From a virus: a stretch of 64,000 bases of DNA. The stretch is taken from the IMG/VR virus record IMGVR_UViG_3300029554_000001, one strand, 5' to 3'. Each line of letters begins with the position of its first letter. Positions within the stretch are counted from its first letter, which is position 1. This document shows, in pieces, positions 43,022-62,680 of this stretch. Position numbers and translations under genes: made by a program. The notes beneath the pieces were generated by a model. That model was not told the origin of the DNA. It did no database searches and worked only from the letters and a program-made list of their open reading frames with translations.

Positions 43022-43050
43022 TTGACAAGAATGAATTTGTATGTTACAAT
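43022..43050 (+). promoter_or_regulatory. plus-strand sigma70-like promoter inside the minus-strand gene block
   Basis: TTGACA-N17-TACAAT. Confidence 0.55.
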
Positions 43051-43051
43051 A

Positions 43052-43300
43052 CACATAGAGTTAAGAGACCAGTAACCTCTTAACCCTATGTGTTATGTTT
43101 TAATTTAATGTTTAGACTTCCATGAAGCCAGTCAAGACAATCACAGAATAATAAACATTAAATCTGTAGTTTATCTGTTTGATTTTCTACATGGTCTTTC
43201 ATCTCCTTTCTTCCTTAAGACAAGGGTTTCATTTATATGAACAGCTTACGGGGCTGGAGTTTTAGACAGGAACAGGATTATTCCTGTTCCTTTTCTTTTT
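43052..43300 (+). ncRNA. predicted antisense RNA covering peptide ORF a
   Basis: Promoter 43022-43050; 5' hairpin 43052-43094; terminator hairpin 43269-43290 plus T-run. Confidence 0.4.
43112..43192 (-). CDS. ATG-TAG small peptide, member a: MXKIKQINYRFNVYYSVIVLTGFMEV (X=TAG)
   Basis: AAAGGAG-10 nt-ATG TAG; 26 sense codons then TAA. Homologous to 52148-52228. Lies inside the antisense unit 43052-43300. Confidence 0.45.
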
Positions 43301-43742
43301 CTTTGTAAGGCTTAAGGGGAATACGATTACGAGTAGAATATTCGCCAGTATCGTTGTCCATGAGGAATTCGTTTTCACATTCGTCACAGAAGAATTTGGT
43401 TTCAGTTTTAAAATCATCAACTCCTGTTACTCCCCAATTTCCACAATAAGGACAACGAGGTTCACGATACTGACCAAAGTGAATATCTTTCTGATACTCT
43501 TCAGACCGAGGTTCACTCCAAACCTTGACAGAGAAGGTATTGCCAGACTTGTCATCAGGGTCAATCTCTGCCATACAGATATCCTGTTCAACATCCTGAC
43601 CATCACGGACAAAGACGATGTTTACACCATGATATCCTTCCTCTTGCTCGCAATAAATTCTAAATTGACCATTAGGAGTATCAACGAAAGCATGAGTGAA
43701 GCCATTAATCGTGCTCAAACCAATCTTGTTGTACTGTTTCAT
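43278..43742 (-). CDS. hypothetical protein with CPYCG...CDEC zinc ribbon (154 aa)
   Basis: GAAGGAG-9 nt-ATG 43742. The C-terminal KEKEKEQE codons overlap a plus-strand terminator hairpin. Confidence 0.6.
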   Translation of the reverse strand: MKQYNKIGLSTINGFTHAFVDTPNGQFRIYCEQEEGYHGVNIVFVRDGQDVEQDICMAEIDPDDKSGNTFSVKVWSEPRSEEYQKDIHFGQYREPRCPYCGNWGVTGVDDFKTETKFFCDECENEFLMDNDTGEYSTRNRIPLKPYKEKEKEQE

Positions 43743-43827
43743 AATATAAATCTCCTTCAATTAAAAATAATTTTTTAAAAAACTCTTGACAATATGAGCA
43801 AGTAAGATTGTAGACCTACCTACTTTT

Positions 43828-44376
43828 TTACCAGCCGTAAACATTGCAAACTTGTTTACCAATAGCTCGGGTATACTTGGTAATATCTTTGGGAGTTGCT
43901 TTACCATGATACAATTTCCAACAGAAATTATCAAGCTGGTCAGAAGAGATTTCAGGTTTCACTTCCCTATATAAAGTGTAGTTTGTTCCGTCATGATGAG
44001 TTTGCATAGAGCGAAGATTGTTGTGAGAATCAACCCACCACTTACCATACTCACTACCCATTTTGAAGTTAAGACAGGCTTTAATATTATGCTCATCGAG
44101 AAGAGTATATCCCATTCTACGCCCATTCCAAAGACCAACATCAGCAATCTCGATGATACGACCTTCTGTGGAAATATCGAGGTTACATATTTCATCCTTA
44201 AAGTACATATCATTAAGGTCTAACATCTCTTCATGGAACTTATATTCTTCCCACTCAGAGTAATCAACTCCACATTCATCAAGTCTTTCCTTGATGTCAT
44301 CAATCCAATCATCGAGGTTCAGGTCGTAGTTGCTCCAAACGATACGAGAATTGCTTTTATTATTCTTGGTAGCCAT
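43828..44376 (-). CDS. hypothetical protein (182 aa)
   Basis: AAAGGAA-8 nt-ATG 44376. The track's longer N-terminus overlaps the upstream gene and lacks an SD. Confidence 0.6.
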   Translation of the reverse strand: MATKNNKSNSRIVWSNYDLNLDDWIDDIKERLDECGVDYSEWEEYKFHEEMLDLNDMYFKDEICNLDISTEGRIIEIADVGLWNGRRMGYTLLDEHNIKACLNFKMGSEYGKWWVDSHNNLRSMQTHHDGTNYTLYREVKPEISSDQLDNFCWKLYHGKATPKDITKYTRAIGKQVCNVYGW

Positions 44377-44437
44377 AATCATAATTCCTTTCTTTTTTAT
44401 CATAATTAGAATGTTTTGATATAGAAAAAGCTGGAGA

Positions 44438-44989
44438 TTATATCCCAGCAAATCCTTTATAAGTTTCAACAATCTTGTTTTTTTCTTCAATGATGTCCTT
44501 AGTTGCTTTTTTTATACTGTAAATAAGATTGTCTCTCAATGTAGGATAGATTTGATATTCATCCCATTTAGCAAGCCAACCATCTTTATCTTCAAGCAAA
44601 GGTTCGGGACAGCATTCAGGAGAAGCATTAAGTGCAATAGAGTCAGTATAACTACCACTTCTCCAAGTGATATAATAACAACCACCCTGTTTGCTAATTG
44701 CGACACTTTCATCATTACCATAATCTCTGTAATAATGAGCATAAAGATTTGTTCTTGAAAAAAGATTGGCTTCTTCAGCGATTTTTACCAAAGAGAGAAT
44801 CTGATTAACAACTACAGTCCACTTAGCTCTACCGATTGCTTCTGTACGAGGAATGTAATATTCCTTAGTATTTTCATGAACAGTCTTAGCATCCTGATAA
44901 CGCTGAAGAAGTTCCATCATTTCGGTATCTTCGGTTTCTTCGCAAGAAATGGTGACGGTCATGCCCTTGTAAGTATTAGTGTTAGTCAT
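44438..44989 (-). CDS. hypothetical protein, paralogue of 45056-45631
   Basis: MTNTNTYKGMTVTISCEETEDTEMMEL vs MTNTKTYENMTVTVTCKENEDTEMMEL. Confidence 0.65.
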   Translation of the reverse strand: MTNTNTYKGMTVTISCEETEDTEMMELLQRYQDAKTVHENTKEYYIPRTEAIGRAKWTVVVNQILSLVKIAEEANLFSRTNLYAHYYRDYGNDESVAISKQGGCYYITWRSGSYTDSIALNASPECCPEPLLEDKDGWLAKWDEYQIYPTLRDNLIYSIKKATKDIIEEKNKIVETYKGFAGI

Positions 44990-45055
44990 AGTTATGTTTC
45001 CTTTCTTTTTAAGTTGAAGTGTGAATAGGTGCTTAGTATATAAGAAAACTGGGGA

Positions 45056-45631
45056 TTATTCCCCAGTAATCTCAGAATAATTTTCTTGGATGGAACGAAT
45101 TCTATCCTCGTCAACTTTAATTCTGCGCTCAATTTCTTTCATAAGAGCAGAACGGAAAAGATTATAAATGTTATAATCATCCCATTTAACGAGCCAACCA
45201 TCTTTGTCCTCACCCCATTCAGAAGAATAATACTCTTCATCAGGATTTAAGAAACAGGTACTTGCGATACCCCCGTTTATTGAGCACTTAAGGAAGTAGC
45301 CTTTGTCTTTACCAACGGAGCTATAAGAAAGCCACATGCGGCAACGTTCACCAGTATCGTCCCTACAAAAAGAAATTCTCAAGAAATTATCAATCGTACC
45401 CCTCATATTGAAACTTGTAGCTGTCTCACACAACCCGAGAAGCTGATTGCAAATTTCAGTCCATTTAGCAGAACCAATAGCTTTAATACGAGGAAGGTAA
45501 AATTCCTCAGTGCGCGAGAGTGTAGCCTTAGTGTCATTCATCTTTTTAATGAGTTCCATCATTTCGGTGTCTTCATTCTCCTTGCAAGTAACAGTAACGG
45601 TCATGTTCTCATAAGTCTTAGTGTTAGTCAT
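45056..45631 (-). CDS. hypothetical protein, paralogue of 44438-44989
   Basis: ORF + SD AAAGGG; shared N-terminal and C-terminal (DKDGWL(A/V)KWD(E/D)Y) blocks. Confidence 0.65.
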   Translation of the reverse strand: MTNTKTYENMTVTVTCKENEDTEMMELIKKMNDTKATLSRTEEFYLPRIKAIGSAKWTEICNQLLGLCETATSFNMRGTIDNFLRISFCRDDTGERCRMWLSYSSVGKDKGYFLKCSINGGIASTCFLNPDEEYYSSEWGEDKDGWLVKWDDYNIYNLFRSALMKEIERRIKVDEDRIRSIQENYSEITGE

Positions 45632-45704
45632 AATACAACCCTTTCTCCCCGTATAGCCGTTAGGTCAGCTTAAATATTAGTTGCTTGTTGTTGCTTAAGG
45701 TTAA

Positions 45705-47321
45705 TTAGTCACGAGGAGTAACACGAACTTTGAGCTTGTTTTTCTTGGCATACTCACAAATAGCTTTGTACTCGTCCTCAGTGATACTACGGTTGGAAGC
45801 TCCTCTTGCCTGAACAATAGCTTCGTTTTCAATTTCAATAGTAACAAGAGACTTGTCAGTATCTTTAGTCTTACGAAGTAAAACAATCAGACAATTTCTC
45901 TTGATTATTCTGCTCAGGTAACTATACACACAATGATTCAACTCAGAACCTTCGCGTTTAACATCATCTGCATTCTTAGGACGAACAATACTGTATGTCT
46001 TATCCTCTGTAACAAAAGGCTTGAAATCTTTATAAGCCTTTTCAAACATCTCAGCCTGTTCCTCGGTAAGCTTGATTTCATAGTTGCGAGAAGTGATATC
46101 ATGAGTCTGCTTAAGGTAAGAGCTGTAAAGAGTAGGCTTGATATCCATGGAAACGCACATATCAAGATAATCACGAAGTTCGCCCATAAACGAGTTTAAA
46201 CTCTTAAAACCTTGGTTGACAGCCTCTTCACAAACATAATCCATAAACTTACCAAAAGTATAGAACTGATAGAATTTGGAATTTCTATAAGAAGTATAAT
46301 TCCTAAGATAAGCAGATAGAGTGCTAGTGAAAACATTTCCACCATACCCACCAATCTGGACATGGTTGAATTGAAATTCTTCGTCCCAATACTTAGCTTT
46401 TTCAATGATATCAAACCATTCCTGATTCGTGTAATGGCAGAAATCCTCTAAAGTTTGTCCACCGTTGTAACCATAATACTGAGTATCCTCGTCTTTCTTA
46501 AAAGCGGAACCAACAATAGACTGCAAATTCATCCAATCATCAAGAATGTTTCTGTCATTGGCTTCTTTATACTCTGCCTTGGTAAGATGAACAAGTTTGT
46601 AAACAGGTTCAGCAGTTTCAATCTTAAGACTAAGAAGAGCGTTTTGAATAGATTTGGGAGCAGTACGGAAGATGATTTCAGCAGATTTATTTCTACTTAA
46701 TGCGAATCTCAATTCTCTGAAAGTATAGTTAACGCCAATATTTTCAACGGGAATATCCCAAACTTGAGAGATAAAAGAAACTGCACTGTCACCCATTCCA
46801 GCTTCATAAACAGGAGCATTACCATCACTAACAGGTTTTGCATTAGGTTCAAGAATAGGAATTAACTGTTCACCATCCATGATAAAGTTGCAAGAGGAAT
46901 TGTTGGTGGCAATTCTATATCTGTAATGACGAGATACAATAGCACCAAGAGGGAAGCAATAGCCAACATTGACCCAGAAATCACCGCCTTTCAAATTAAT
47001 TTCTTTAATGATAAAAGTGTCGGGTAAAAGACAGTCACGATTGACAGGAGCACCAGTGAATAAATCAAAATACCACTGAAAATCAGAACGGTTCGAACTG
47101 TAATGAACAATGACTTTCTTTCCAAGAGGAGTAAAATCACTATTATAGCGATTGTTCTGAACCTTGGTCATTTCAACTCTTGCTTCTTCAAGCTCATCAG
47201 AGAGCTTTTTAATACGAGCGTTAATTTCTTTCTCTTTGGCAGAGATTTCATAGTTGTTGAAAAAGCTCTCATAATCATGAATGGAGGACTTGTAGAAGTT
47301 AGCAATAGCAGTGTTAGACAT
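45705..47321 (-). CDS. PcfJ-like domain protein (538 aa)
   Basis: C-terminal EGSELNHCVYSYLSRIIKRNCLIVLLRK...VTIEI...QARGASN resembles the PcfJ-like domain. AAAGGAAA SD before ATG 47321. Confidence 0.55.
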   Translation of the reverse strand: MSNTAIANFYKSSIHDYESFFNNYEISAKEKEINARIKKLSDELEEARVEMTKVQNNRYNSDFTPLGKKVIVHYSSNRSDFQWYFDLFTGAPVNRDCLLPDTFIIKEINLKGGDFWVNVGYCFPLGAIVSRHYRYRIATNNSSCNFIMDGEQLIPILEPNAKPVSDGNAPVYEAGMGDSAVSFISQVWDIPVENIGVNYTFRELRFALSRNKSAEIIFRTAPKSIQNALLSLKIETAEPVYKLVHLTKAEYKEANDRNILDDWMNLQSIVGSAFKKDEDTQYYGYNGGQTLEDFCHYTNQEWFDIIEKAKYWDEEFQFNHVQIGGYGGNVFTSTLSAYLRNYTSYRNSKFYQFYTFGKFMDYVCEEAVNQGFKSLNSFMGELRDYLDMCVSMDIKPTLYSSYLKQTHDITSRNYEIKLTEEQAEMFEKAYKDFKPFVTEDKTYSIVRPKNADDVKREGSELNHCVYSYLSRIIKRNCLIVLLRKTKDTDKSLVTIEIENEAIVQARGASNRSITEDEYKAICEYAKKNKLKVRVTPRD

Positions 47322-47386
47322 AATCAATTTTCCTTTCTTAATTAGACAAAATGTTTGTAGTGACTATATATTAAAGGTAGGAGGGA

Positions 47387-48061
47387 TTAACCCTCCTTTA
47401 CCTTTTTACAGAAAGCTTTGTATTTCTGACTATTGAGGACCCCAAGAATCTTATCTTTAGCTTCGGGCTGACTCTTATAGTAGTCGGAGTTATAGCCAAA
47501 GTGTCTCTGATAAATCATATCAGGATTTTTCTCCAGTAATGCTTCAAGAGGACAATACAGGCTTACAGTAACTTTTTCGCCGTTGTACTTGTAAGGCATT
47601 TTGATATAGATATCACATGAACCATAGCCGCACGTAGGAACATAAGCACTGAATTCGTATTTCTTCAGATAAGGATAAGCCATGAAAATTGCCTCTCTGA
47701 AACTCTTAATAAGATGGGCATTTTGATATTCAAGAGGGACAACATACTGGTAAGCATCTTCGTAATGGTCTCTTTTCCAACCATTACGTTCTTCTGTGAA
47801 TCTAAAATTTCTCTTGATTTCAGGGAGACGTGTGTAATGGGTTTCATAGTAGCTAACATTATTCGAAGATATAGGGATATACTTAATACCACAGACATCT
47901 TTCATTTTGATTTTCTCAGTCACAAGCCAGAGAAGGACATGGGTAGGGAAGCACTTTTCCCACACATCCCATTCTTGGATGAATTTCTTAGCTCTTTCGT
48001 ATCCAACAAATTCATCATTGCGATAAGTACCCTGATATTCAGCATAAATAGCCATAGTCAT
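47387..48061 (-). CDS. hypothetical protein (224 aa)
   Basis: ORF + SD AAAGGAA; the start could be the second ATG (48055). Confidence 0.6.
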   Translation of the reverse strand: MTMAIYAEYQGTYRNDEFVGYERAKKFIQEWDVWEKCFPTHVLLWLVTEKIKMKDVCGIKYIPISSNNVSYYETHYTRLPEIKRNFRFTEERNGWKRDHYEDAYQYVVPLEYQNAHLIKSFREAIFMAYPYLKKYEFSAYVPTCGYGSCDIYIKMPYKYNGEKVTVSLYCPLEALLEKNPDMIYQRHFGYNSDYYKSQPEAKDKILGVLNSQKYKAFCKKVKEG

Positions 48062-48131
48062 AATTCCTTTCTTTTCAATAGATGTGTTGTTGTTTATGTT
48101 TGTTATTTATATTTGAGTTTTGTTCTCTTTT

Positions 48132-48335
48132 TTAATAAGTGGGATTAGCTTTAGAAAGTTCCCAAGATTCTTTTTTCAGCAATGCATGAGCTTCTTCATA
48201 AGCAGTAAAAAATTCTTGGTCAGTTTTGTAATCACCCATGCTATGAACCATTTCTCTGATATAGTCATCCATGAAGGGAATAGATGCTTCAAAATCGACC
48301 AAAGCGCCACTGAGATTTTCTACTAAAGTAATCAT
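48132..48335 (-). CDS. hypothetical protein (67 aa)
   Basis: AAAGGAG-8 nt-ATG 48335. Confidence 0.55.
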   Translation of the reverse strand: MITLVENLSGALVDFEASIPFMDDYIREMVHSMGDYKTDQEFFTAYEEAHALLKKESWELSKANPTY

Positions 48336-48354
48336 TGTTATATCTCCTTTCTTT

Positions 48355-48549
48355 TTAAGTGTCAATAGCCAAATTCTTTACACAATATCCATACTTTTCT
48401 TCAAGGTTTTCACAAATAGAGTCTTCTATATCTCTTAAAAAACTGGTACAAAGGTCATCGTACTCAAGGTCAACTTCAGATGGAAGGCTTTCACTGGGGA
48501 TATCGTTTTCATCAGTGTCCCATTCAATATTGGTAACGTGAATAATCAT
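48355..48549 (-). CDS. hypothetical acidic protein (64 aa)
   Basis: AAAGGAG-7 nt-ATG 48549. Confidence 0.55.
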   Translation of the reverse strand: MIIHVTNIEWDTDENDIPSESLPSEVDLEYDDLCTSFLRDIEDSICENLEEKYGYCVKNLAIDT

Positions 48550-48623
48550 ATTCAATCTCCTTTCTTAAATGAGAGGGAGAGATATTTCGCTCTCCCTCAT
48601 GTTGATTGTTTGAACAGTTGAAA

Positions 48624-49115
48624 TTAAACAGAGGGTCTACCAAGCCATTCAATGTTGTCTGCCTTGATAGTCATACAACCAGTCTCATTGGAAGACGTGA
48701 AATAACTATCAGGAACAAAACCAGTCTTACGAAGGTCTTCCTTAGAAATAGGCTTCCCATTGAGATAGTGCTGGACCTTGGGCTTATTGGGCGTATCGTA
48801 CACACGGAGATACTCATTATACTCACCCTTCTTATTGGTGTGGCAGATGATACGATTGCTGTTATCCTTCCACTGACCCCAAGGAAGCTTAGAAGCAGTA
48901 TCAATAGGGATATTCTTCTCAGCAGCCTTTGCGATTGCCTTCTTGGTATGCTTGTAGTTGACACCGATACGGTAAGTACCGATAACACGCTTAAGAACAG
49001 AGACACCAGCTTTACGACCGAGAGCAGAGAGAGTCACATCGGAAACGTAAGCCATCTTGAAGAACTGACCAGCGGGGATAGAGTTGACCTTGAGGTTGAA
49101 ATAAGTGTTATTCAT
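48624..49115 (-). CDS. hypothetical basic protein (163 aa)
   Basis: ORF + SD AAAGGAAA; GC-richer codon usage than the plus block. Confidence 0.65.
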   Translation of the reverse strand: MNNTYFNLKVNSIPAGQFFKMAYVSDVTLSALGRKAGVSVLKRVIGTYRIGVNYKHTKKAIAKAAEKNIPIDTASKLPWGQWKDNSNRIICHTNKKGEYNEYLRVYDTPNKPKVQHYLNGKPISKEDLRKTGFVPDSYFTSSNETGCMTIKADNIEWLGRPSV

Positions 49116-49194
49116 GATATTTCCTTTCTGCCCGTAAACCCGATAGCACAGGATAATAAATTGGTTTATTGTGGATTGTTATGTGAGAAAACGA

Positions 49195-49497
49195 TTAGAT
49201 GTCAATTTCGATGATTTTACCATCCCAGTTATCGTGATTGTAAGTCTCAGCCCATGCAGATGTATCATTGAAGTTGTTTTCATCATCAAGAATATCATCA
49301 TCTACAAGAGACTCAATAGCTTCTTCCAGCTCGTCCATCGTAGAGATGTTGCAAAAGTTATAATTATCTACATCAATATGCCGACAAGCTTCGATAAACA
49401 GCTCAAATAAATGAATCTGAGCTTTCTCCATAGTGTCGAAGAACTCAGGTTCACCAATTTCACGCTCACAGCAATCAATAACCATAAACTTCTTCAT
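49195..49497 (-). CDS. small acidic protein, paralogue of 56918-57220
   Basis: MKKFMV(I/T)D(C/T)CEREIG...NHDNWDGKI(I/F)EI(D/E)I; roughly two-thirds identical by eye. Confidence 0.65.
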   Translation of the reverse strand: MKKFMVIDCCEREIGEPEFFDTMEKAQIHLFELFIEACRHIDVDNYNFCNISTMDELEEAIESLVDDDILDDENNFNDTSAWAETYNHDNWDGKIIEIDI

Positions 49498-49536
49498 AAT
49501 TTTTATTTCCTTTCTTCAATCAAATGTTGTTTGTTG

Positions 49537-50024: not shown

Positions 50025-50080
50025 AGTTAAATTCCTTTCTTAATTAAGTGTGTTGTTTGTAGGTATTATGTGAGTGTGGA

Positions 50081-51851: not shown

Positions 51852-51880
51852 TTGACAAGATTGATGTTATGTGTTAATAT
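51852..51880 (+). promoter_or_regulatory. plus-strand sigma70-like promoter inside the minus block
   Basis: TTGACA-N17-TAATAT with upstream TGTGT. Confidence 0.55.
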
Positions 51881-51952
51881 ATGTATAGATGATAAGAAGA
51901 ATCCTATACTTCTTACTTACCATCTATACATCTTCGTAATTAATGTGTGAGA

Positions 51953-52024
51953 TTAATTACGGTTATAGATAATCATTATCTACATGAGATTGTAGAAATA
52001 ATTAACGTAGAAGATTCTCTACAT
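51953..52024 (-). CDS. ATG-TAG small peptide, member b: MXRIFYVNYFYNLMXIMIIYNRN
   Basis: AAAGGAG-9 nt-ATG TAG; second ATG TAG in frame at 51985-51980. The C-terminal IYNRN is shared with member e. Confidence 0.4.
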
Positions 52025-52147
52025 GGCTTTCAACTCCTTTCCTCCTTAGACAAGGGACAATTATATAACAGTTTATAGGAACTGATTATATTAGAATAAG
52101 AGAATCGCCTATACAATTCTCTTAGTGAATTATTTTAGTTTAAACTA

Positions 52148-52228
52148 TTAAAGTTCGTATGCTCCGCCAAGAACAATAGAACAATAATAAACATTAAACT
52201 AATAGTTTATTTGTTTGACTGTCTACAT
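52148..52228 (-). CDS. ATG-TAG small peptide, member c: MXTVKQINYXFNVYYCSIVLGGAYEL
   Basis: AAAGGAG-7 nt-ATG TAG; homologous to member a (KQINYxFNVYY). Confidence 0.45.
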
Positions 52229-52304
52229 AGACATTCTCCTTTCCATTTAGCACTAATATATAAACAGTTTATAGGAACTGATTATATCAAGAAAGAGCAG
52301 GATT

Positions 52305-52484
52305 TTATTCCTGCTCTTTTTCTATTGTGTACAAATACTGCTTTCGCTTTTCTTTGTACTGCTTATTGATTTTGTACCGATAATTGCCATGAGTCTTACG
52401 CTGGATTCCTTCACAGCGGTCATAGTACATACCATCGTACTGGGGATACTCTGTGATAGCATTGTTAGGTGTACGTTTAGACAT
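52305..52484 (-). CDS. hypothetical basic protein (59 aa)
   Basis: GGAGGG-8 nt-ATG 52484, ATGTCTAA overlap with the upstream stop. The C-terminal EKEQE codons overlap a plus-strand terminator hairpin. Confidence 0.5.
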   Translation of the reverse strand: MSKRTPNNAITEYPQYDGMYYDRCEGIQRKTHGNYRYKINKQYKEKRKQYLYTIEKEQE

Positions 52485-55825: not shown

Positions 55826-55934
55826 AATAGACCTTTCTCTCGTGGGTTTTAATGTCTTTTTCCTTGACAAATTTATTGAGCTTAAAGGCTCATTAAAGTG
55901 CAGGATATATTTCAATCCTGCGCTCTATCAACCT

Positions 55935-56141: not shown

Positions 56142-56156
56142 ATTAATTGTTCTCCT

Positions 56157-56342: not shown

Positions 56343-56388
56343 AATTTTAATTCCTTTCTTAATTAAAATGCAAAATATATTTTAACCT

Positions 56389-56715
56389 TTAGAAGTTAAG
56401 AGCAGGGACAGTAAGCAGATACATATTCCAGTAATCCCAATTTTTGTTAAGTTCTTTTAAAAGATGAGAAGGGCTGATTCTCCAATCAGGAGATGTAGGG
56501 ACACCATTATCTTCCAATTGGTCAACAAGTTTAATCTTGTTAAGAAGAAGAAATTCTTCCAGTTTCTCCTTATTGATTTTATTGAAGCCATCTTTCTGAA
56601 TACATACAGCCCACATAATATTCTCCACAACTGTTCTATGGTTGGAAGAATAAACAGGGTAGAAATTGACTCCATCATGGGCAACGAGGACGTAGTTATA
56701 AGTCTGATTAGTCAT
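56389..56715 (-). CDS. hypothetical protein (108 aa)
   Basis: GAGGAGG SD within the end of the upstream gene. Confidence 0.6.
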   Translation of the reverse strand: MTNQTYNYVLVAHDGVNFYPVYSSNHRTVVENIMWAVCIQKDGFNKINKEKLEEFLLLNKIKLVDQLEDNGVPTSPDWRISPSHLLKELNKNWDYWNMYLLTVPALNF

Positions 56716-56717
56716 AG

Positions 56718-56882
56718 TTAAAAATCCTCCTCTTCCTGAGCGTCAGTAGCTTCAAAATCATCAGACCAAGTAATATCTTCTTTACCATAGCCCTCGACCT
56801 TGGCAAAAGCATCATTTTCAGATTCGGCTTCAACCTGAACAAAGCCATAACGAGCAAACGTGACATTGTAAATCTTTTTCAT
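56718..56882 (-). CDS. hypothetical acidic protein (54 aa)
   Basis: AAAGGAAA SD; below the track cutoff. Confidence 0.45.
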   Translation of the reverse strand: MKKIYNVTFARYGFVQVEAESENDAFAKVEGYGKEDITWSDDFEATDAQEEEDF

Positions 56883-56917
56883 AGTATTATTTCCTTTCTT
56901 AATTCAGATGTTTAAAA

Positions 56918-57220
56918 TTAGATTTCGATTTCAAAGATTTTGCCATCCCAGTTATCATGGTTAGTAGTTTCAGCCCATGCACAAGTACCCTCGAAGTTGT
57001 TCTCGTCATCGAAAATGTCATTATCAATGAGAGAATCAATAGCTTTTTCAAGCTCTTCTTTTGTAGTGACAACATACTTATTATAATCATCTGCATCAAG
57101 ATGCCGACAAGCCTCAAGAAACAAATTGAACAAGTGAATCTGAGCTTTCTCCATGGTATCAAAGAAATAAGGATGACCAATCTCACGTTCGCAAGTATCA
57201 GTGACCATAAACTTCTTCAT
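56918..57220 (-). CDS. small acidic protein, paralogue of 49195-49497
   Basis: AAAGGAAAG SD; first gene after the minus promoter at 57312-57340. Confidence 0.65.
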   Translation of the reverse strand: MKKFMVTDTCEREIGHPYFFDTMEKAQIHLFNLFLEACRHLDADDYNKYVVTTKEELEKAIDSLIDNDIFDDENNFEGTCAWAETTNHDNWDGKIFEIEI

Positions 57221-57311
57221 AATTTTCTTTCCTTTCTTAAATCACAAATGTTGTTTAGTTCTCATCAATGCAAAAGCAACTTGTATCAGAATCAACTTTA
57301 TTATTGGTTAT

Positions 57312-57340
57312 ATTATACTTTCCTTTCTTAATGGTGTCAA
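57312..57340 (-). promoter_or_regulatory. minus-strand sigma70-like promoter upstream of 56918-57220
   Basis: Reverse complement reads AATACTTGACA-N17-TATAAT. Confidence 0.6.
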
Positions 57341-57368
57341 GTATTTAAAAAGAAATTTTACAAACTAC

Positions 57369-57397
57369 TTGACAAGTGTTGTGATTTGTGTTATATT
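57369..57397 (+). promoter_or_regulatory. plus-strand sigma70-like promoter inside the minus block
   Basis: TTGACA-N17-TATATT, TGT extension; divergent from the minus promoter 57312-57340. Confidence 0.55.
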
Positions 57398-57398
57398 A

Positions 57399-57640
57399 CA
57401 CTCATCAAGCAAGGTATGTAACTTTTACTTGATGAGTGTAGGTTTTACAATACCTGTAACTGTGGATTAGTTACGATGGTACACGATACGAACGACCGAG
57501 ATTTGTCTATCCATATCAACATGTAAAATTTTCTACATATTAATTTCTCCTTTCGTGAGTAATTATGTAAACAGGCTTTACAGGAGTCTGGTGTCTTAAG
57601 TAAGACTGGTAGTTAGTAGCTACCAGTCTTTTCTCTTTTA
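57399..57640 (+). ncRNA. predicted antisense RNA covering peptide ORF d
   Basis: Promoter 57369-57397; 5' hairpin ACACTCATCAAG...CTTGATGAGTGT; terminator 57603-57629 plus T-run. Confidence 0.4.
57467..57538 (-). CDS. ATG-TAG small peptide, member d: MXKILHVDMDRQISVVRIVYHRN
   Basis: AAAGGAG-8 nt-ATG TAG. Aligns with member e but is less hydrophobic (possibly decayed). Confidence 0.35.
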
Positions 57641-58570
57641 CTTCTTATAAACCATAAAGGTGAGAAGATAATCACGAATCTTTTCAGCGGGATGTCCTTC
57701 ATGCTCTTCAATCTTGTCCTGAGCAACACGAACAAACTCATCACAGCTCTTATACTGCTTAAGGTTCAGCAGAAAATAGTTGAATGCTTTGGTATCCTCA
57801 CAGTGCTTGTAGCAAGCAGAAATTCCTGCCAACATGCGCTGAGTATAAACCATATCATCCTTCCAACCAGTCCCCTGAAGAACAGCGAACACAAAACGAA
57901 GAGCGTTTTCACCATCGCGTTTAACAATACGATACAGCTCTTCAATTGCATTGATATTGTTATAGCGGTTAATGGTGCTATTGCGATTGGTCTTAACAGT
58001 CAGACCAAATTCCTTTGTGACCTGATTGATAATTACTGCTGTAGGCTTCTTGGCACAAAGTTCAGCTTTATATCTTTCATAGCCACGAAGATTGGTCTTA
58101 CCCTCGTTCTGAGTAGCAAACAAATCTGCTTCTTCTTCCAGAGTAAGATTGATAAATACTTTGCAAGTGATAGCATAGATGGGGAAGCCTTTACTCTGCA
58201 TATAAAGCAGAGCACTCAAGGTATGAGCCCCATCCATAAGAAACAGATGCCAAGTATTACCAACTTTACGAATAGAAGCCGCTTTAATTTCAACCTTGTT
58301 GATATTAAAGTTGTTGGTAATTTTAGCTACTTCATAGTTTTTGGGTTCGCGCTGATAGTGCAAGTCAATTTCAGGCATAAAAAGAGGAATGTCTCTAATA
58401 GCCCAGTTACGACCATCTTCTCTCTTTTCAATCTCCCTTTCCACAGAGAGCTTAAAGGCATAAACGGTCTTGGACTGTTCATTGGTGATTGCTTTGGGCT
58501 TAAGTGCATCGAACAGGACTTCACTGACGGACTTTTCGTTCTTGATGTTGGTGAGATTAATCTTCTTCAT
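57638..58570 (-). CDS. ParB/sulfiredoxin-fold (ParB-like nuclease / DGQHR-like) domain protein
   Basis: YQREP...FLMDGAHTLSAL resembles the ParB N-terminal-domain core (DGxHR-type); AAAGGAA SD. Tentative. Confidence 0.45.
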   Translation of the reverse strand: MKKINLTNIKNEKSVSEVLFDALKPKAITNEQSKTVYAFKLSVEREIEKREDGRNWAIRDIPLFMPEIDLHYQREPKNYEVAKITNNFNINKVEIKAASIRKVGNTWHLFLMDGAHTLSALLYMQSKGFPIYAITCKVFINLTLEEEADLFATQNEGKTNLRGYERYKAELCAKKPTAVIINQVTKEFGLTVKTNRNSTINRYNNINAIEELYRIVKRDGENALRFVFAVLQGTGWKDDMVYTQRMLAGISACYKHCEDTKAFNYFLLNLKQYKSCDEFVRVAQDKIEEHEGHPAEKIRDYLLTFMVYKK

Positions 58571-58613
58571 GATTCTAAATTCCTTTCAAGTTAAAAAAGT
58601 TTGTAGTTATCAC

Positions 58614-58642
58614 TTGACAGATATTATCAAGTGTGCTAAGAT
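58614..58642 (+). promoter_or_regulatory. plus-strand sigma70-like promoter inside the minus block
   Basis: TTGACA-N17-TAAGAT. Confidence 0.5.
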
Positions 58643-58643
58643 A

Positions 58644-58885
58644 AACACAAGTAGAAAGCCTACACTCTCTACTTGTGATGCAATTAATACGGATTAATTA
58701 CGATTGTAAATGATGAAGACTATTATTATAGACCAATAATAGTCAACTGCTAAGATTTTCTACATAGCAAAACTCCTTTCTAATTTAATAATACATTAAT
58801 TCATTGTAGGCTAAATTAATGTGCGAGTGAATAAGTTGGGCTTAAACACTCTATTGAGGGATGGAAGTTATTTTCCATCCCTCTA
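58644..58885 (+). ncRNA. predicted antisense RNA covering peptide ORF e
   Basis: Promoter 58614-58642. 5' hairpin CACAAGTAGA-loop AAGCCTACACTC-TCTACTTGTG. Distal hairpin 58856-58883 has no clear T-run. Confidence 0.35.
58694..58765 (-). CDS. ATG-TAG small peptide, member e: MXKILAVDYYWSIIIVFIIYNRN
   Basis: AAAGGAG-7 nt-ATG TAG; hydrophobic core SIIIVFII. Confidence 0.45.
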
Positions 58886-58892
58886 ACAATGT

Positions 58893-59087
58893 TTAAACTC
58901 TTTCAACCTTATAAGGCTTGCAAGCAACAACATCGAAATTGTTTACAAGCCAGTCAGGTTTGGTTTCTTTAGTATTAAGGAATTTACAAACAATGTTTGC
59001 AAGCACTTCACTGTTAAATACAGTTTTTTCCTTCATACTCATTGTAACTGTTACGGATTTTCCGTATTTGTTTGTAATCTTAAACAT
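58893..59087 (-). CDS. hypothetical protein (64 aa)
   Basis: GGAGG-7 nt-ATG 59087, overlapping the upstream stop (ATGTTTAA). Confidence 0.5.
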   Translation of the reverse strand: MFKITNKYGKSVTVTMSMKEKTVFNSEVLANIVCKFLNTKETKPDWLVNNFDVVACKPYKVERV

Positions 59088-59394
59088 GCCACACCTCCGT
59101 CTTGATGCCCTTACCGTTATAATAACGACGAGCACCATAATTGGCTCTGTCACTGAAGCACTCAGCACAAGGAATTAATTCCTTACGCTTTCCCTCCTTG
59201 ATTTCCTTGAGTGAAAGATTGAAGCACTGTTCAACCTCACACTTATCACACATCTTACAGGATTTACCCTTGCAAATGTTTTCGCAGAAGTTGTTCTTAA
59301 CTTTGCAGAGATGCTTAATACCCCAAGAGGAATTCATCTCAGCTAAGGTCTGGTCGAGAGTGTAGTTATGACCTATAACACTAATCTTTTTCAT
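59080..59394 (-). CDS. Cys-rich protein (104 aa)
   Basis: AAAGGAG SD; CKVKNNFCENICKGKSCKMCDKCEVEQC. Confidence 0.6.
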   Translation of the reverse strand: MKKISVIGHNYTLDQTLAEMNSSWGIKHLCKVKNNFCENICKGKSCKMCDKCEVEQCFNLSLKEIKEGKRKELIPCAECFSDRANYGARRYYNGKGIKTEVWHV

Positions 59395-59457
59395 TTTACT
59401 TTGACTCCTTTCAAGTCTGTATTAAATTTAATTTTAAATTTGTCTTAAGCTATATGG

Positions 59458-59790
59458 TTAGAAACAAATACGTTTCTTTTTGATTTTGGTAAGCATCCAA
59501 CACCAAGGATTTCCAAAATCATCTTCAAGAGGAGTAACCTTAATGGTTACAAGCACCTCAGTACTAAGATGCTCAAGGATATAATCCAAATTCTTAAGAG
59601 AGAAAACATATCTTTCTTTTGTATCATCTTTAGTGCTTTTTGCGCACCATTTAATGATTTCTTTCAAGCCCGAATCAATCAGGCAGTTCAGGTTCCCATA
59701 AGTGTCAAGCGTTTTATTAAGAGAAGGTGCTTCTAAATGGGTAGGATTGTTGGTGAGAGAGCGAACGGTGTTTTTTAATTTCTTGGACAT
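59458..59790 (-). CDS. hypothetical protein (110 aa), weak paralogue of 36799-37113
   Basis: AAAGGAAA SD. Confidence 0.6.
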   Translation of the reverse strand: MSKKLKNTVRSLTNNPTHLEAPSLNKTLDTYGNLNCLIDSGLKEIIKWCAKSTKDDTKERYVFSLKNLDYILEHLSTEVLVTIKVTPLEDDFGNPWCWMLTKIKKKRICF

Positions 59791-59826
59791 TTTCTTTATT
59801 TCCTTTCTTTTGTTGATTATTGATAT

Positions 59827-60018
59827 TTACACTTGCTTAAGATACTTAAGGTTTAATTCTAATTTGGAATCCATTGTTAAGCCATTTTCGCGCTTGATTC
59901 TGCCACACAAGTTATTCAAAGCTTGTTTCTCAGAAGAAGCCGTGGTATAACCAGAAAAATGGCAATAATAGTTATACCATCTGGTTACGGGACCATCGTA
60001 GTAATATTTGAGTTTCAT
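59827..60018 (-). CDS. hypothetical protein (63 aa)
   Basis: AAAGGAGG-7 nt-ATG 60018. Confidence 0.5.
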   Translation of the reverse strand: MKLKYYYDGPVTRWYNYYCHFSGYTTASSEKQALNNLCGRIKRENGLTMDSKLELNLKYLKQV

Positions 60019-60037
60019 ATATACACCTCCTTTCAAC

Positions 60038-60283
60038 TCAAATAAAATTGAAAACTTTACACTCTTCATGGACATAGCCTCCAAGAACTTCAGGACAGGA
60101 CTGGAAATAACCAGATGCATCCTGAATGTGGATGAGAATGGTATCGTCCATATTTAATGAACCTTTGCGCACTTTTGCTCTAAGCGAGCGACGAATTCGT
60201 TCCCAAATGTTGCACTTTTCTTCGAATACATCATAGATGACTTTGCCATCCTTTTTGACATATCCACTATACCATCTTGTCAT
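60038..60283 (-). CDS. hypothetical protein (81 aa)
   Basis: AAAGGAGGG 12 nt before ATG 60283. Its SD/5' end overlaps the plus-strand promoter at 60290-60318. Confidence 0.5.
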   Translation of the reverse strand: MTRWYSGYVKKDGKVIYDVFEEKCNIWERIRRSLRAKVRKGSLNMDDTILIHIQDASGYFQSCPEVLGGYVHEECKVFNFI

Positions 60284-60289
60284 AACTAC

Positions 60290-60318
60290 TTGACACCCTC
60301 CTTTTGTTGTGTTATAAT
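60290..60318 (+). promoter_or_regulatory. plus-strand sigma70-like promoter inside the minus block
   Basis: TTGACA-N17-TATAAT, TGT extension. Confidence 0.6.
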
Positions 60319-60319
60319 A

Positions 60320-60655
60320 CCTAATAAGAAAAGTGGTTGACCAATCCACTCTTCTTATTAAATTGATTAGTCTAAGTCTAACTTAGATATATCTATCTGG
60401 AAGAATTCAATCAGCTATTCAACACTTAGGTGTTGCATGTACCAATTAAATTCAAACTCAGAAGTGATATACTACTTCAGAATAGAACCAATCTTTGCTT
60501 TATTACTAAGACTATCCTACATGAATTCCTCCTTTCTTTTAACTCGTTAGTGTTGTGACTAACTTGTTATTCGTTATCTTATTGGTCAGATAAGATAGAG
60601 TCTTAGCTGCAACTAAGCACTCTATGAAGGGTAGGAGCATATGTTCCTACCCTTT
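60320..60655 (+). ncRNA. predicted antisense RNA covering ORF f
   Basis: Promoter 60290-60318; 5' hairpin ~60324-60359; distal hairpin 60629-60652 followed by TTT. Confidence 0.35.
60367..60522 (-). CDS. ATG-TAG ORF, member f (51 codons; TAG at codons 2, 17, 36)
   Basis: AAAGGAGG-5 nt-ATG TAG. Same module architecture as the small peptides, but the product is longer and not hydrophobic. Confidence 0.35.
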
Positions 60656-60663
60656 AACAATGC

Positions 60664-61005
60664 TTAGATGTTATCCCACTGATTAGTGATGAAATTAAAG
60701 CATCGAACAGTTCCACCAATCTTTTTCTCCCAGCGGGGGTTGTTTTTGTTCAATGTATAAGTGGCAAGGCGACTTTTAGCAGCCGTGACAATAATATCAT
60801 ACTGACCGAGTTCCTGAAGAGACTTGATATAGTTCATGAGTTTGACATCATTTTCAAATTCGATGTCAATTGTTCTGGAAGCACTGACAATATCAGTGCA
60901 ATGGTCATCCACACCTTCAGGTTTCCACCCCTGTTCAAAGTGGCTGATAATAGAATCAATATCATAGATGCAGATGCGTTTAACAAACTTAACAGTGTAA
61001 TTCAT
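60664..61005 (-). CDS. hypothetical protein (113 aa)
   Basis: AAAGGAAAA SD. The stop is followed by the conserved GCATTGTTA-hairpin-ATAGAGTGCTTAG junction. Confidence 0.6.
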   Translation of the reverse strand: MNYTVKFVKRICIYDIDSIISHFEQGWKPEGVDDHCTDIVSASRTIDIEFENDVKLMNYIKSLQELGQYDIIVTAAKSRLATYTLNKNNPRWEKKIGGTVRCFNFITNQWDNI

Positions 61006-61034
61006 TTCTTTTTTCCTTTCTGTTTATAAAAGTC

Positions 61035-61063
61035 TTGACAAGCACAATTTCATGTGTTATACT
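61035..61063 (+). promoter_or_regulatory. plus-strand sigma70-like promoter inside the minus block
   Basis: TTGACA-N17-TATACT, TGT extension. Confidence 0.6.
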
Positions 61064-61064
61064 T

Positions 61065-61295
61065 GTTATTAGAATAAGAGAAGTGCCTACACACCTCTCT
61101 TATTAATAAGCTTTTATTCTTCTTAGAAATTATAGTTCTTTAGAATTACAACTACAACGACGTTTAAAGAATAATTGACTGAAATAATCTTCTTCATTGT
61201 TTTACCTCCTTAAGAAGATAAAAGCAAACAAGGATGTAGGTCCTTATTCACTACAGAGGAGAGATGTGGGGATATCTCTCCTTCTGTTATATTTG
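61065..61295 (+). ncRNA. predicted antisense RNA covering peptide ORF g
   Basis: Promoter 61035-61063. 5' hairpin AATAAGAGA-loop AGTGCCTACACACC-TCTCTTATT. Terminator 61258-61282 plus TTCTGTTATATTT. Confidence 0.4.
61123..61197 (-). CDS. small hydrophobic peptide, member g (no TAG): MKKIISVNYSLNVVVVVILKNYNF
   Basis: AAGGAGG-7 nt-ATG AAG. Closest relatives are members h, i and j. Differs from i by 11 synonymous and 4 non-synonymous codons. Confidence 0.5.
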   Translation of the reverse strand: MKKIISVNYSLNVVVVVILKNYNF

Positions 61296-61326
61296 AGTAG
61301 TTTAACGACTTGCTCAGGTCGAGAGG

Positions 61327-61728
61327 TTAGTTCTGATAATCGTCAGAAACTAATACCCATTCTTCCCCATTACTATCAATAAGATGAATGGTTGTTCTAT
61401 CCTCACTGATAGTTACATTCTGAAGATTAGAGAACCAATCCTCAGTTGTTGTGTAGCTATCCTCAACTCCTTTGTTATAACCAGCGTTATATGCACCAGT
61501 TACGTCTTCGTTAGTGAAGACTTCTGCTGGTGCACTTTTACTGTAATCAATATGGTCAAGAATAACAGCGATTCCAATCGCAAGGACAACTACCAGAATA
61601 AACATAGCTCTGGGATTCATGCTCTTATTTTGAGCTATTGCTTCAAGATTAATAACAAGACCGTACACAATCATGATAGCAACAATAGCAATAGCAACAA
61701 TGGTAACATTGGTAATATTGATAAACAT
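61327..61728 (-). CDS. membrane protein (133 aa)
   Basis: The second ATG (61728) has proper SD spacing; the track start 61734 is 1 nt from the SD. Two N-terminal TM segments. Confidence 0.55.
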   Translation of the reverse strand: MFINITNVTIVAIAIVAIMIVYGLVINLEAIAQNKSMNPRAMFILVVVLAIGIAVILDHIDYSKSAPAEVFTNEDVTGAYNAGYNKGVEDSYTTTEDWFSNLQNVTISEDRTTIHLIDSNGEEWVLVSDDYQN

Positions 61729-61762
61729 CTTCATTTCCTTTCTGGTTTTTTACGTCTTTTCC

Positions 61763-61791
61763 TTGACAAACAATTATTTATGTGTTATTAT
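61763..61791 (+). promoter_or_regulatory. plus-strand sigma70-like promoter inside the minus block
   Basis: TTGACA-N17-TATTAT (TATAAT 3 nt further), TGT extension. Confidence 0.55.
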
Positions 61792-61837
61792 AATGATGAG
61801 AAGGTTGCCTACACAACCTCCTTAATGCATAATTATC

Positions 61838-61912
61838 TTAGAAGTTGTGATTCTTCAAGATAATCATACTAACTATGCCGAGAACATAGTCAATAAATGT
61901 TATTTTCTACAT
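61838..61912 (-). CDS. ATG-TAG small peptide, member h: MXKITFIDYVLGIVSMIILKNHNF
   Basis: AAAGGTG-5 nt-ATG TAG. Confidence 0.45.
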
Positions 61913-62056
61913 TTTATCACCTTTTCATAATTTAATACTTAATTATAAATTATGTAGGTAATCTATAATTAAGCAGACTGCTTATTGCGACTAAGCACTC
62001 TATAAGATAGAGGAAGATACTCTTATCTTCCTCTACCCTAACAATGCTTATTATGC

Positions 62057-62131
62057 TCAGAAGTTATAATTCTTCAGTATGGCAACTGTTACAACATTAA
62101 GAGCATAATTTACGGAAATCGTTTTCTACAT
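62057..62131 (-). CDS. ATG-TAG small peptide, member i: MXKTISVNYALNVVTVAILKNYNF
   Basis: AAAGGAGG-8 nt-ATG TAG; in tandem with member h. Confidence 0.5.
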
Positions 62132-62219
62132 GATGATTTCCTCCTTTCCGAGTGCGATTTGGATTACTAAGCACTCTATTAAGCCCACCATCAATTACGA
62201 TGATGGGCTTTAACAATGC

Positions 62220-62390
62220 TCAGATAGGGATACAAATAACATATCCATCATCCAAGAATCGGGGATAAAGCTTATTCTTATTGAGAAGCTTATCTCCAAT
62301 CTCTTTTGCTTCCTCCTCATTAGAGGCAGACACGAATACTGTATCACAACCACTAATGATGGAAGTGATATATTTGACTTTGTATGTCAT
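62220..62390 (-). CDS. hypothetical protein (56 aa)
   Basis: AAAGGAA SD; below the track cutoff. The stop is followed by the conserved junction motif. Confidence 0.5.
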   Translation of the reverse strand: MTYKVKYITSIISGCDTVFVSASNEEEAKEIGDKLLNKNKLYPRFLDDGYVICIPI

Positions 62391-62417
62391 TTTCTTTTAT
62401 TCCTTTCTATAAAAGTC

Positions 62418-62446
62418 TTGACAAATACAACTTTATATGTTATACT
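62418..62446 (+). promoter_or_regulatory. plus-strand sigma70-like promoter inside the minus block
   Basis: TTGACA-N17-TATACT, TGT extension. Confidence 0.6.
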
Positions 62447-62447
62447 T

Positions 62448-62680
62448 GTTGTTGTAGTAAGAAAGATGCCTATACACCTTTCTTACAAAAAGAGTGATTA
62501 TTAACCTTATCAGAAGTTATAATTCTTTAGGACGAGAATCGTAACAACATTTAAAGTATAATCTATTGTAATTATCTTCTACATTTATTACCTCCTGAAG
62601 ATTGATAGAAGTACTTATCAATATAGGTTAATAAGCACTACAAAACATTGGGACACTTGTTCGGAAGTGTCCCTTTTGCT
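62448..62680 (+). ncRNA. predicted antisense RNA covering peptide ORF j
   Basis: Promoter 62418-62446. 5' hairpin GTAAGAAAG-loop ATGCCTATACACC-CTTTCTTAC. Strong terminator GGGACACTT-GTTCGG-AAGTGTCCC 62650-62673 plus TTTT. Confidence 0.45.
62510..62584 (-). CDS. ATG-TAG small peptide, member j: MXKIITIDYTLNVVTILVLKNYNF
   Basis: CAGGAGG-6 nt-ATG TAG. Confidence 0.5.

Follow-up and report, generated by a model that had tools for sequence, protein, structure and literature searches.

The stretch of IMG/VR record IMGVR_UViG_3300029554_000001 examined here (the window; 64,000 nucleotides) comes from a gut phage and carries ten very short minus-strand open reading frames (ORFs), each embedded in a repeated arrangement that we call a cassette. 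Nine of these ORFs encode one family of 23- to 26-residue peptides, and in most of them the second codon is TAG, which the phage, judging from its genes, reads as glutamine. Promoters on the opposite strand converge on the ORFs, and a short motif ahead of the start codon recurs in the loop of a hairpin beyond the stop. On balance, the ORFs are probably mini-genes in conserved cassettes that resemble type I toxin-antitoxin (TA) loci with an added genetic-code lock, and the toxicity is putative. A more specific interpretation, which we offer tentatively, is a battery of cell-killing or lysis-timing mini-peptides that would be armed by the phage's mid-infection code change, with antisense and kissing-fold safeties in addition.

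Peptide ORFs and their coding constraint

All ten ORFs were recovered where the initial annotation had placed them. Each is preceded, 5-10 nt upstream, by a strong Shine-Dalgarno sequence (SD) reading GGAG(G) or AAGGTG, and nine begin with ATG TAG, the start of 61123-61197 being ATG AAG. Upstream in-frame starts (ATGCAAATGTAG, TTGAAAGCC and others) were considered and rejected for being too near or within the SD. With q denoting TAG, the first family member is MqKIKQINYRFNVYYSVIVLTGFMEV at 43112-43192 (26 aa, TAG at codon 2), whose orthologues show a Q/q swap at codon 6. A tandem pair follows, with MqTVKQINYqFNVYYCSIVLGGAYEL at 52148-52228 (26 aa, two TAGs) as its upstream member, which has no antisense promoter of its own, and MqRIFYVNYFYNLMqIMIIYNRN at 51953-52024 (23 aa, two TAGs) as its downstream member. 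Two 23-aa peptides lie further along, MqKILHVDMDRQISVVRIVYHRN at 57467-57538, from a hydrophilic sub-family, and MqKILAVDYYWSIIIVFIIYNRN at 58694-58765. The remaining four have 24 aa: MKKIISVNYSLNVVVVVILKNYNF at 61123-61197, with AAG at codon 2; MqKTISVNYALNVVTVAILKNYNF at 62057-62131 and MqKITFIDYVLGIVSMIILKNHNF at 61838-61912, the upstream and downstream members of a second tandem pair; and MqKIITIDYTLNVVTILVLKNYNF at 62510-62584.

These nine peptides align without gaps on the consensus M-(q/K)-K-I-x-x-(V/I)-(N/D)-Y-x-x-(N/S/G)-(V/I), and they divide into the C-terminal sub-families that had been proposed, ending ILKN(Y/H)NF, I(V)Y(N/H)RN or IVLxG. Written with Gln at the TAG position, two examples of the family peptides are IISVNYSLNVVVVVILK and TISVNYALNVVTVAILK. 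A hydrophobic core had been claimed for the whole family; it is present in eight of the nine window peptides and absent from the 57467 peptide (grand average of hydropathy -0.24). The tenth ORF, at 60367-60522 on the same strand, is unrelated to the family, as had been recognized. It has 51 codons, four of them TAG (MqDSLSNKAKIGSILKqYITSEFEFNWYMQHLSVEqLIEFFQIDISKLDLD), and shares the cassette layout.

Coding constraint had first been proposed from one pair of ORFs, 61123-61197 and 62057-62131, and the counts reported for them, 11 synonymous and 4 non-synonymous differences at sense codons, are correct. The pair also differs in the stop codon (TAA/TGA), and the non-synonymous count rises to 5 if codon 2 is included. 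The same constraint was then seen in homologues. A hidden Markov model that made no use of codon 2 recovered 74 copies, corresponding to 64 unique ORFs. Along the minimum-spanning-tree edges connecting the family ORFs, there were 103, 51 and 187 substitutions at codon positions 1, 2 and 3, and single-nucleotide codon changes were synonymous in 126 cases vs 82 non-synonymous. This codon periodicity and the synonymous excess indicate purifying selection. Judged by this pattern, the minus-strand ORFs are real protein-coding mini-genes.

The family is known only from one clade of gut phages with sizes of 108-224 kb. A pattern combining SD, ATGTAG and the family sequence matched 29 IMG/VR loci, every one on 108- to 220-kb contigs of one phage clade. 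When GTDB genomes were scanned with a codon-2-independent pattern, no bacterial chromosomal homologues were seen; the matches were one 28-kb related phage contig and chance matches antisense to glycosyltransferase genes. The 28-kb contig CAVKBM010000181.1 (L077/L080), from a Bacteroidaceae bin of metagenome-assembled sequence, has eight family members, codon-2 variants CAA, CGT and AAG included. The way it uses the SD and TTGACA/TATAAT favours a host of Firmicutes type and, therefore, the bin label is probably not the host. In keeping with the earlier view that the peptides belong to no known family, neither they nor the 51-aa ORF matched Pfam, NCBIfam or PHROG, even at E<=10 or E<=0.1. An Rfam scan of the cassettes revealed no known antitoxin or small RNA family.

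The cassettes are confined to the 43-62.6-kb stretch of the window's standard-coded right arm, and neither the left arm nor ~30 kb of late genes contained any. Decayed copies in which only the C-terminal ..MIILKNHNF* is left occur in the related loci L015 (minus strand, offset 2508) and L029 (plus strand, offset 7807), and a tandem pair of the window is replaced by a different cassette in L069 and L075. The sequence comparison indicates that cassettes turn over rapidly between near-identical strains.

In composition, the peptides contain 35-57% V/I/Y/F/T/W and only 4-17% L+A. Polar and apolar residues alternate in the N-terminal half (V-N-Y-x-L-N-V), the hydrophobic stretch covers ~10-13 residues, and the beta-type hydrophobic moment equals or exceeds the alpha-type moment in most peptides. 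This composition argues against a classic alpha-helical transmembrane toxin. In predicted character, the peptides are more like amphipathic beta-strands or beta-hairpins than like helical membrane toxins.

TAG recoding, antisense units and element X

TAG is assigned to Gln because it is rare as a stop, is polymorphic with CAG, aligns with Gln between paralogues and is abundant in late genes, as in code-15 phages. The stops of 97 ORFs of at least 70 aa were TAA (77), TGA (18) and TAG (2), and TAA follows within 7-21 codons of both TAG-ended ORFs. At codon 124 of a 275-aa gene, two strains have TAG where two others have CAG, with no other difference in the context, and the frame runs 155 codons further; Q/q swaps are also seen within the peptides between orthologues. 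Two GIY-YIG-like paralogues at 24603-25568 and 25558-26919 (plus strand) contain 3 and 4 in-frame TAGs, respectively, and their alignment places TAG in one opposite Gln in the other. The terminase and endolysin genes are located 5-10 kb past the window, and in L083, a related locus, the endolysin has 4 TAGs, a terminase large-subunit fragment 6 and a 547-codon ORF 6. Under the standard code, the nine ATG-TAG ORFs stop at once, and the suggestion that their peptides would be made only when TAG is decoded holds for a phage recoded from TAG to Gln.

Within the standard-coded arm, TAG is restricted to the cassettes. There are 178 CAA/CAG and zero TAG codons in 37 right-arm genes, and the ten cassette ORFs contain 16 TAG vs 5 CAA/CAG. 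Codon 2 among the 64 unique ORFs is TAG in 46, AAG in 10, AAA in 3, ACA in 3 and AGT in 1, with no CAA/CAG. Loci added later provided one CAA and one CGT at codon 2, as well as one copy with TAG moved to codon 3. The internal Gln positions of the family are 19 TAG vs 11 CAA/CAG. A scan for the C-terminal motif of the ILKNYNF sub-family, which is unbiased for codon 2, gave 11 TAG vs 9 AAG copies. At codon 2, these counts show TAG as strongly favoured over the synonymous Gln codons. About 8 of ~26 lineages have AAG, AAA, AGT, ACA, CGT or CAA at codon 2 and are readable in the standard code. Since ~30% of lineages are without TAG at this codon, TAG gating is frequent, not obligatory. The earlier proposal of a peptide set switched on by a genetic-code change, therefore, applies to most copies and does not extend to these lineages.

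We also considered whether ATG-TAG is kept for pairing with UGUAGG/CCUACA loops. This was rejected, as ATG-TAG is present with other loops and the AAG-type cassette has a CCUACA loop. For several left-arm ORFs on the plus strand (3281-3442, 3539-3796, 5458-5691, 8748-9779, 10137-10442 and 17886-18149), use of an upstream SD-led start would mean that TAG is confined to the first 3-18 codons. These starts are candidates, and they hint that 5'-proximal TAG gating may be a wider habit of the phage.

Overlapping antisense transcription had been suggested for the ORFs and finds support at the sequence level, since eight plus-strand TTGACA-17-TG-n-TAnnnT promoters converge on them. All eight of the right arm's plus-strand consensus promoters face a cassette, each having a TTGACA without mismatch that is spaced by 17 nt from a TG extended -10. 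They are sigma-70 promoters with -10 sequences TACAAT at 43022-43050, TAATAT at 51852-51880 (tandem pair 51953/52148), TATATT at 57369-57397 (back-to-back with a sense promoter at 57340-57312), TAAGAT at 58614-58642, TATAAT at 60290-60318 (12/12 consensus positions, opposite the 51-codon ORF), TATACT at 61035-61063 (opposite the AAG-type peptide), TATTAT at 61763-61791 (tandem pair 61838/62057) and TATACT at 62418-62446. Such a promoter lies 39-84 nt beyond the stop in 67 of the 74 family copies, and the copies without it have truncated flanks or occupy the upstream position in a tandem pair. Plus-strand protein genes behind these promoters were rejected as an explanation, given that no SD-led ORF is found there and that the minus-strand frame is the one matched by the codon periodicity.

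In 56 of 56 unique modules, a hairpin whose stem co-varies was found at the antisense 5' end, with energies of -10 to -26 kcal/mol. The predicted antisense RNA starts with this hairpin, and the peptide mRNA ends with it. In the window, these hairpins are at 43051-43093 (plus-strand loop GACCAGTAACC), 51881-51931 (loop TCCTATAC), 57398-57439 (the 57467 cassette, of the same kind), 58646-58677 (loop GCCTACAC), 60322-60360 (loop TTGACCAAT, the 51-codon cassette), 61066-61109 and 61797-61824 (loop GCCTACAC in both) and 62457-62486 (loop GCCTATAC). Past the hairpin, the predicted antisense RNA spans the ORF, the start codon and the SD. A plus-strand intrinsic terminator just beyond the SD was found in five of the eight window cassettes, giving predicted antisense RNAs of ~220-440 nt. 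These terminators are at 43268-43291 (predicted RNA of ~245 nt), 52290-52321 (predicted RNA of ~440 nt over both tandem ORFs), 57602-57630, 61256-61283 and 62650-62673, the last being bidirectional.

The hairpin-loop motif reappears in the sense-strand 5' untranslated region (5'UTR) as an element that we call X, 43 to 61 nt upstream of the ATG, in 50 of 55 unique modules, vs rates of 10% when the loop class is non-cognate and 15% when the UTRs are shuffled. The loop motif and element X co-vary across ~10 motif classes. On the antisense strand, the loop motif is CCTACA, CCTATA, AGCCTACA, CCCGTAA, CCTGTAA, TCCTATA, CCCACA, CCTGCA or TCCCGTAT, and it is TGACCAAT in the 51-codon cassette. A 5'-3' kissing interaction is implied because the 5'UTR motif complements the mRNA's own 3' hairpin loop and co-varies with it; the 5' loop of the predicted antisense RNA is a copy of X. 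Minus-strand examples of X within predicted 5'UTR hairpin loops, as in several cassettes, are AGCCTACA at 58805-58812, CCTACA at 61235-61240 and CCTATA at 62622-62627. Others in the 5'UTR are TGACCAAT at 60581-60588 (the 51-codon cassette), CCTACA at 61953-61958 and TCCTATA at 52074-52080, which is the same as its antisense-hairpin loop and complements the mRNA 3' hairpin loop. In the AAG-type copy (61123), the SD is inside a predicted 5'UTR hairpin (z = -2.3).

Upstream of four cassettes, at 43193-43262, 52025-52092, 52229-52290 and 57539-57600, the minus strand has a 5' block of a second type, ..CC(Y)(R)TAA(A)(G)CTGTT(T/C)A(T/C)ATAA... The near-invariant block of the 43112 ORF contains CCCCGTAAGC and CTGTTCATATAAAT, the former being an imperfect X in this strain and a perfect CCCGTAA in relatives. 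Blocks of this type are nearly invariant among orthologues while ORF third positions vary. From its sequence, the block may be a structured 5'UTR or a promoter of a non-consensus, extended -10-like type.

Proposed mechanism and alternative explanations

Read along the gene strand, a cassette begins with element X, often in a hairpin loop, and continues with a strong SD, AUG-UAG, the 23- to 26-codon ORF and its stop. It ends in the hairpin with a loop complementary to X, followed by the consensus host-type sigma-70 promoter on the opposite strand. We propose that three locks act on this unit. Firstly, TAG would mean Gln only after the code switch. Earlier, a ribosome would start and terminate at once, leaving neither product nor truncated fragment under the host code. 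Secondly, host RNA polymerase, working from the promoter, hairpin and terminator seen here, would make a 220-440-nt antisense RNA with a stabilizing 5' hairpin. Being complementary to the ORF, start and SD, this RNA would block translation and/or trigger duplex cleavage. Thirdly, the mRNA 5' element would kiss its own 3' hairpin loop and produce an inert fold, as the observed co-variation suggests, and the 5' loop of the antisense RNA would mimic the mRNA 5' element. The peptide would then accumulate only late, with suppressor tRNA present and host-type transcription reduced. Because the repression appears so heavy, the product may be harmful if made early, for example as a lysis-timing or cell-killing effector.

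Several observations weigh against this proposal. The maximum 15-residue hydropathy of the peptides has a median of 1.82 (range 0.43-2.61) and is lower than that of the classic type I toxins compared, which mostly fall at 2.25-3.2, with AapA1 at 1.82. One sub-family is hydrophilic, and no homology was found to described type I toxins (Hok, Fst, Ldr, Ibs, TxpA, BsrG and others). The code lock is dispensable, given the lineages without TAG at codon 2, and the individual cassettes are not essential since decayed copies exist. ARAGORN found no tRNA, suppressor tRNA included, in the ~105 kb examined of the ~210-kb genome; it was run on the window, on 60+ loci and on ~40 kb rightward in several relatives, through the gene resembling an RNA-dependent RNA polymerase (RdRP) and then the terminase. 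The three antisense units other than the five described above end at hairpins with weak T-tracts and have no canonical terminator. No sense promoter was identified for the cassettes, and in four of them element X may be upstream of the peptide's own transcription start.

Some of the same observations suit a different explanation, in which the peptides are ordinary non-toxic late small proteins, for example beta-strand binders of a host or phage protein, and TAG and the antisense RNA are timing devices. The beta-type composition with its alternating polar/apolar pattern, the hydrophilic sub-family and the lack of homology to toxins are consistent with it, as are the 51-aa unrelated, non-hydrophobic ORF in the same layout and the general TAG-richness of the phage's late genes. 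We consider this somewhat unlikely, since multiple paralogous copies, rapid turnover between strains and three layers of repression on a product of 24 aa are typical of toxic peptides, and no other right-arm gene has a TAG or an antisense promoter.

Another possible explanation is that the cassettes are regulatory leaders that sense the state of the code, so that translation past TAG, which the switch alone would permit, alters the mRNA in its structure, its stability or its read-through and turns on a downstream gene, with the peptide itself irrelevant. Each cassette is directly upstream of a same-strand gene, AUG-UAG is a start-stop under the standard code and the 3' hairpin is mostly without a sense-direction U-tract, which makes co-transcription of the ORF with the next gene probable. 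We find a leader role improbable. Purifying selection acts on the amino-acid sequence, which is conserved from one sub-family to another, ~30% of lineages are without TAG, and the downstream genes are unrelated, two of them having their own consensus promoter (57340 and 51631). The stop codon is 12-25 nt ahead of the hairpin with no alternative pairing evident, and a sense U-tract, as in an attenuator, follows the 3' hairpin only at 58694. A leader role would also leave unexplained the convergent promoter conserved in 67 of 74 copies.

The cassettes also bear a likeness to the promoter/stem-loop elements (PeSLs) of T4-type phages, which combine a promoter with a terminator and bring about the shuffling of modules (PMC2839356, PMC4122927). 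Both are repeated sigma-70 promoters with a stem-loop, sit between small accessory genes in a plastic region and are tied to gene replacement between close relatives; here, a cassette can be retained while its flanking genes differ between relatives, or be swapped or lost between near-identical strains. However, PeSL promoters drive the downstream gene and have no ORF, whereas the cassette promoters point against the genes and the unit carries a peptide gene. That the cassettes are only mobile recombination linkers for accessory-gene shuffling, with a selfish or incidental peptide as passenger, is very improbable, because the ORF is under purifying selection, TAG is specifically retained and the co-variation of X with its complement X* indicates an RNA-level function. 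The association with recombination junctions is partly seen, and a PeSL-like linker role may be an additional property rather than an alternative.

Finally, we give almost no credence to untranslated ORFs that are fortuitous within conserved non-coding RNA or DNA elements, despite the strong nucleotide-level conservation of the 5' block and the structured hairpins, since the codon periodicity and synonymous excess, the conservation of the peptides between sub-families with diverged DNA and the correct SD spacing are all at odds with it.

Known systems, the phage and significance

The toxin-antitoxin-like cassettes proposed here can be compared with several known systems. A convergent cis-antisense arrangement is found in bsrG/SR4 and txpA/RatA, which are B. 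subtilis prophage loci, and in hok/Sok. Type I TA systems have been described as a small hydrophobic toxic protein together with an antisense RNA (PMC6563280). The SPbeta locus yonT/SR6 is one of them (PMC5848175), and aapA1 of H. pylori is controlled by mRNA folding and kissing loops (PMC5416894). Like bsrG/SR4, yonT/SR6, txpA/RatA, aapA1/IsoA1 and hok/Sok, the cassettes combine, by sequence, a small (<60 aa) ORF and strong SD with a complementary antisense unit, whose convergent promoter is predicted to be the stronger one. They also resemble these loci in their kissing-competent hairpin loops, in a 5'-3' mRNA interaction that, in silico, could hold the message inert, and in having several paralogous copies per genome on a mobile element. 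In contrast to type I systems, the cassette peptides are shorter (23-26 aa), beta-strand-like and not clear transmembrane helices, with putative toxicity. The antisense RNA is predicted to cover the entire ORF plus the SD, and about ten cassettes occur within 20 kb of a large, apparently lytic, recoded phage. The recoded stop at position 2 in most cassettes is unlike any described type I system.

Start-stop (AUG-stop) mini-ORFs and the lambda bar minigenes form a known start-stop class. The cassettes share with the bar minigenes a strong-SD AUG-UAG that is a start-stop under the standard code and differ in having a conserved coding frame after the stop, read in the phage's late code.

In code-15 phages, stop-codon recoding has been proposed as a timer of late and lysis genes (Borges et al., bioRxiv 10.1101/2021.08.26.457843; Peters et al., PMC9523058). 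As in those phages, TAG is Gln here, the early genes can be read in the standard code and TAG is abundant in late ones such as those for the terminase and endolysin. In genome size, and in how few of its genes are recoded, the phage is similar to the Sapphire-type clades, of which it is a candidate member. The cassettes share with the code-15 proposal the idea that in-frame stops hold back late functions that would do harm if expressed too early. Unlike the code-15 timer genes, they have the recoded codon at one fixed site, codon 2, of multi-copy mini-genes in a standard-coded arm, and they add dedicated antisense promoters and an mRNA fold. A term search of the Borges et al. text found no mention of antisense RNAs or toxins. 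As the initial annotation had supposed, our literature search returned no report of such a toxin-like peptide set, nor of any gene that is toxin-like or guarded by antisense and has a recoded stop as its gate.

The window belongs to a 209-kb JGI contig. The same genome, at 209-224 kb, is present in many human-gut assemblies, two examples being NCBI JAKSHK010002335.1 and JGI Ga0244885_100037. Megablast of the region found no match among GenBank phages, and tblastn with the DUF932 protein found only relatives of <32% identity and no annotated close relative. From 1 to 36 kb, plus-strand genes lie behind 13 consensus TTGACA-17-TATAAT promoters, and from 36 to 64 kb the genes are on the minus strand. 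The latter include two PcfJ-like proteins and DUF932, ParB-like DUF6551, AcrIC5-like and SprT-like proteins. The PcfJ, DUF932 and ParB-like proteins raised the possibility of a conjugative-plasmid leading region, which was set aside once the nearby terminase and endolysin were found; the element is a phage because these two genes lie near the window. Directly right of the window is a polymerase gene with the RdRP fold (PF05183), followed by the endolysin and the terminase large subunit. We take PF05183 to be the fold of YonO-like RNA polymerases. The polymerase gene is at 1587-3602 (minus strand) in L069 and at 9845-12760 (plus strand) in L083, where its open frame has 971 codons. It has TAG at codon 11 after an upstream in-frame ATG, a candidate start, and is followed or interrupted by a LAGLIDADG gene in some strains. 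The terminase large subunit of L083 (18407-21005, plus strand) is apparently split by a GIY-YIG endonuclease gene at 18996-19922, and both terminase parts contain TAG codons.

Other features of the window include a TnpB / IS605 OrfB-family gene at 27636-28739 on the plus strand (PHROG 506, E = 4e-134; Pfam OrfB_IS605 and Cas12f1-like TNB). The left arm also encodes, on the plus strand, a Bax1-I/YccA-family membrane protein (12302-12991) and a SPOR-domain protein (8787-9779), which may be relevant to envelope or lysis control. Between the gene at 63004-63327 and the 62510 cassette is an element resembling a Hammerhead type II ribozyme (62916-62992, minus strand; Rfam RF02276, 31.2 bits against a gathering score of 37, E = 1.8e-4 on 501 nt) with intact CGAAAC, GUC and CUGAUGA cores. 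Several right-arm genes are followed by a conserved intergenic element that runs from the stop codon through GCATTGTTA(A)AG and a hairpin to (A)ATAGAGTGCTTAGT. It is found on the minus strand at ~58843-58895, 60614-60660, 61992-62045 and 62168-62215 and could be a phage-specific promoter, processing site or terminator.

The peptide family and the combination of regulatory elements are new here, and type I TA-like cassettes and recoding-timed late genes are both known kinds. The peptides represent a new, unannotated small-protein family, in a phage widespread in human gut metagenomes, that is invisible to standard gene callers because its members are <30 aa and start with Met-stop in code 11. 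Recoding as a timer of phage late or lysis genes is still a hypothesis. The cassettes fit and sharpen the proposal that recoding prevents premature harmful late functions, and they offer a compact test of it: a 24-codon gene has its recoded stop at a fixed position, copies with a Lys codon in the same genome serve as natural controls, and the antisense partner is defined. Should the peptides prove toxic, type I TA logic would extend to large, apparently lytic phages, and the state of the genetic code would be a regulatory layer not described for any toxin. If they do act in killing or lysis, they would provide the first natural case of a toxin set under the control of a genetic-code switch, paralleling the amber-gated kill switches that have been engineered, and direct evidence for recoding as a gene-specific timer.

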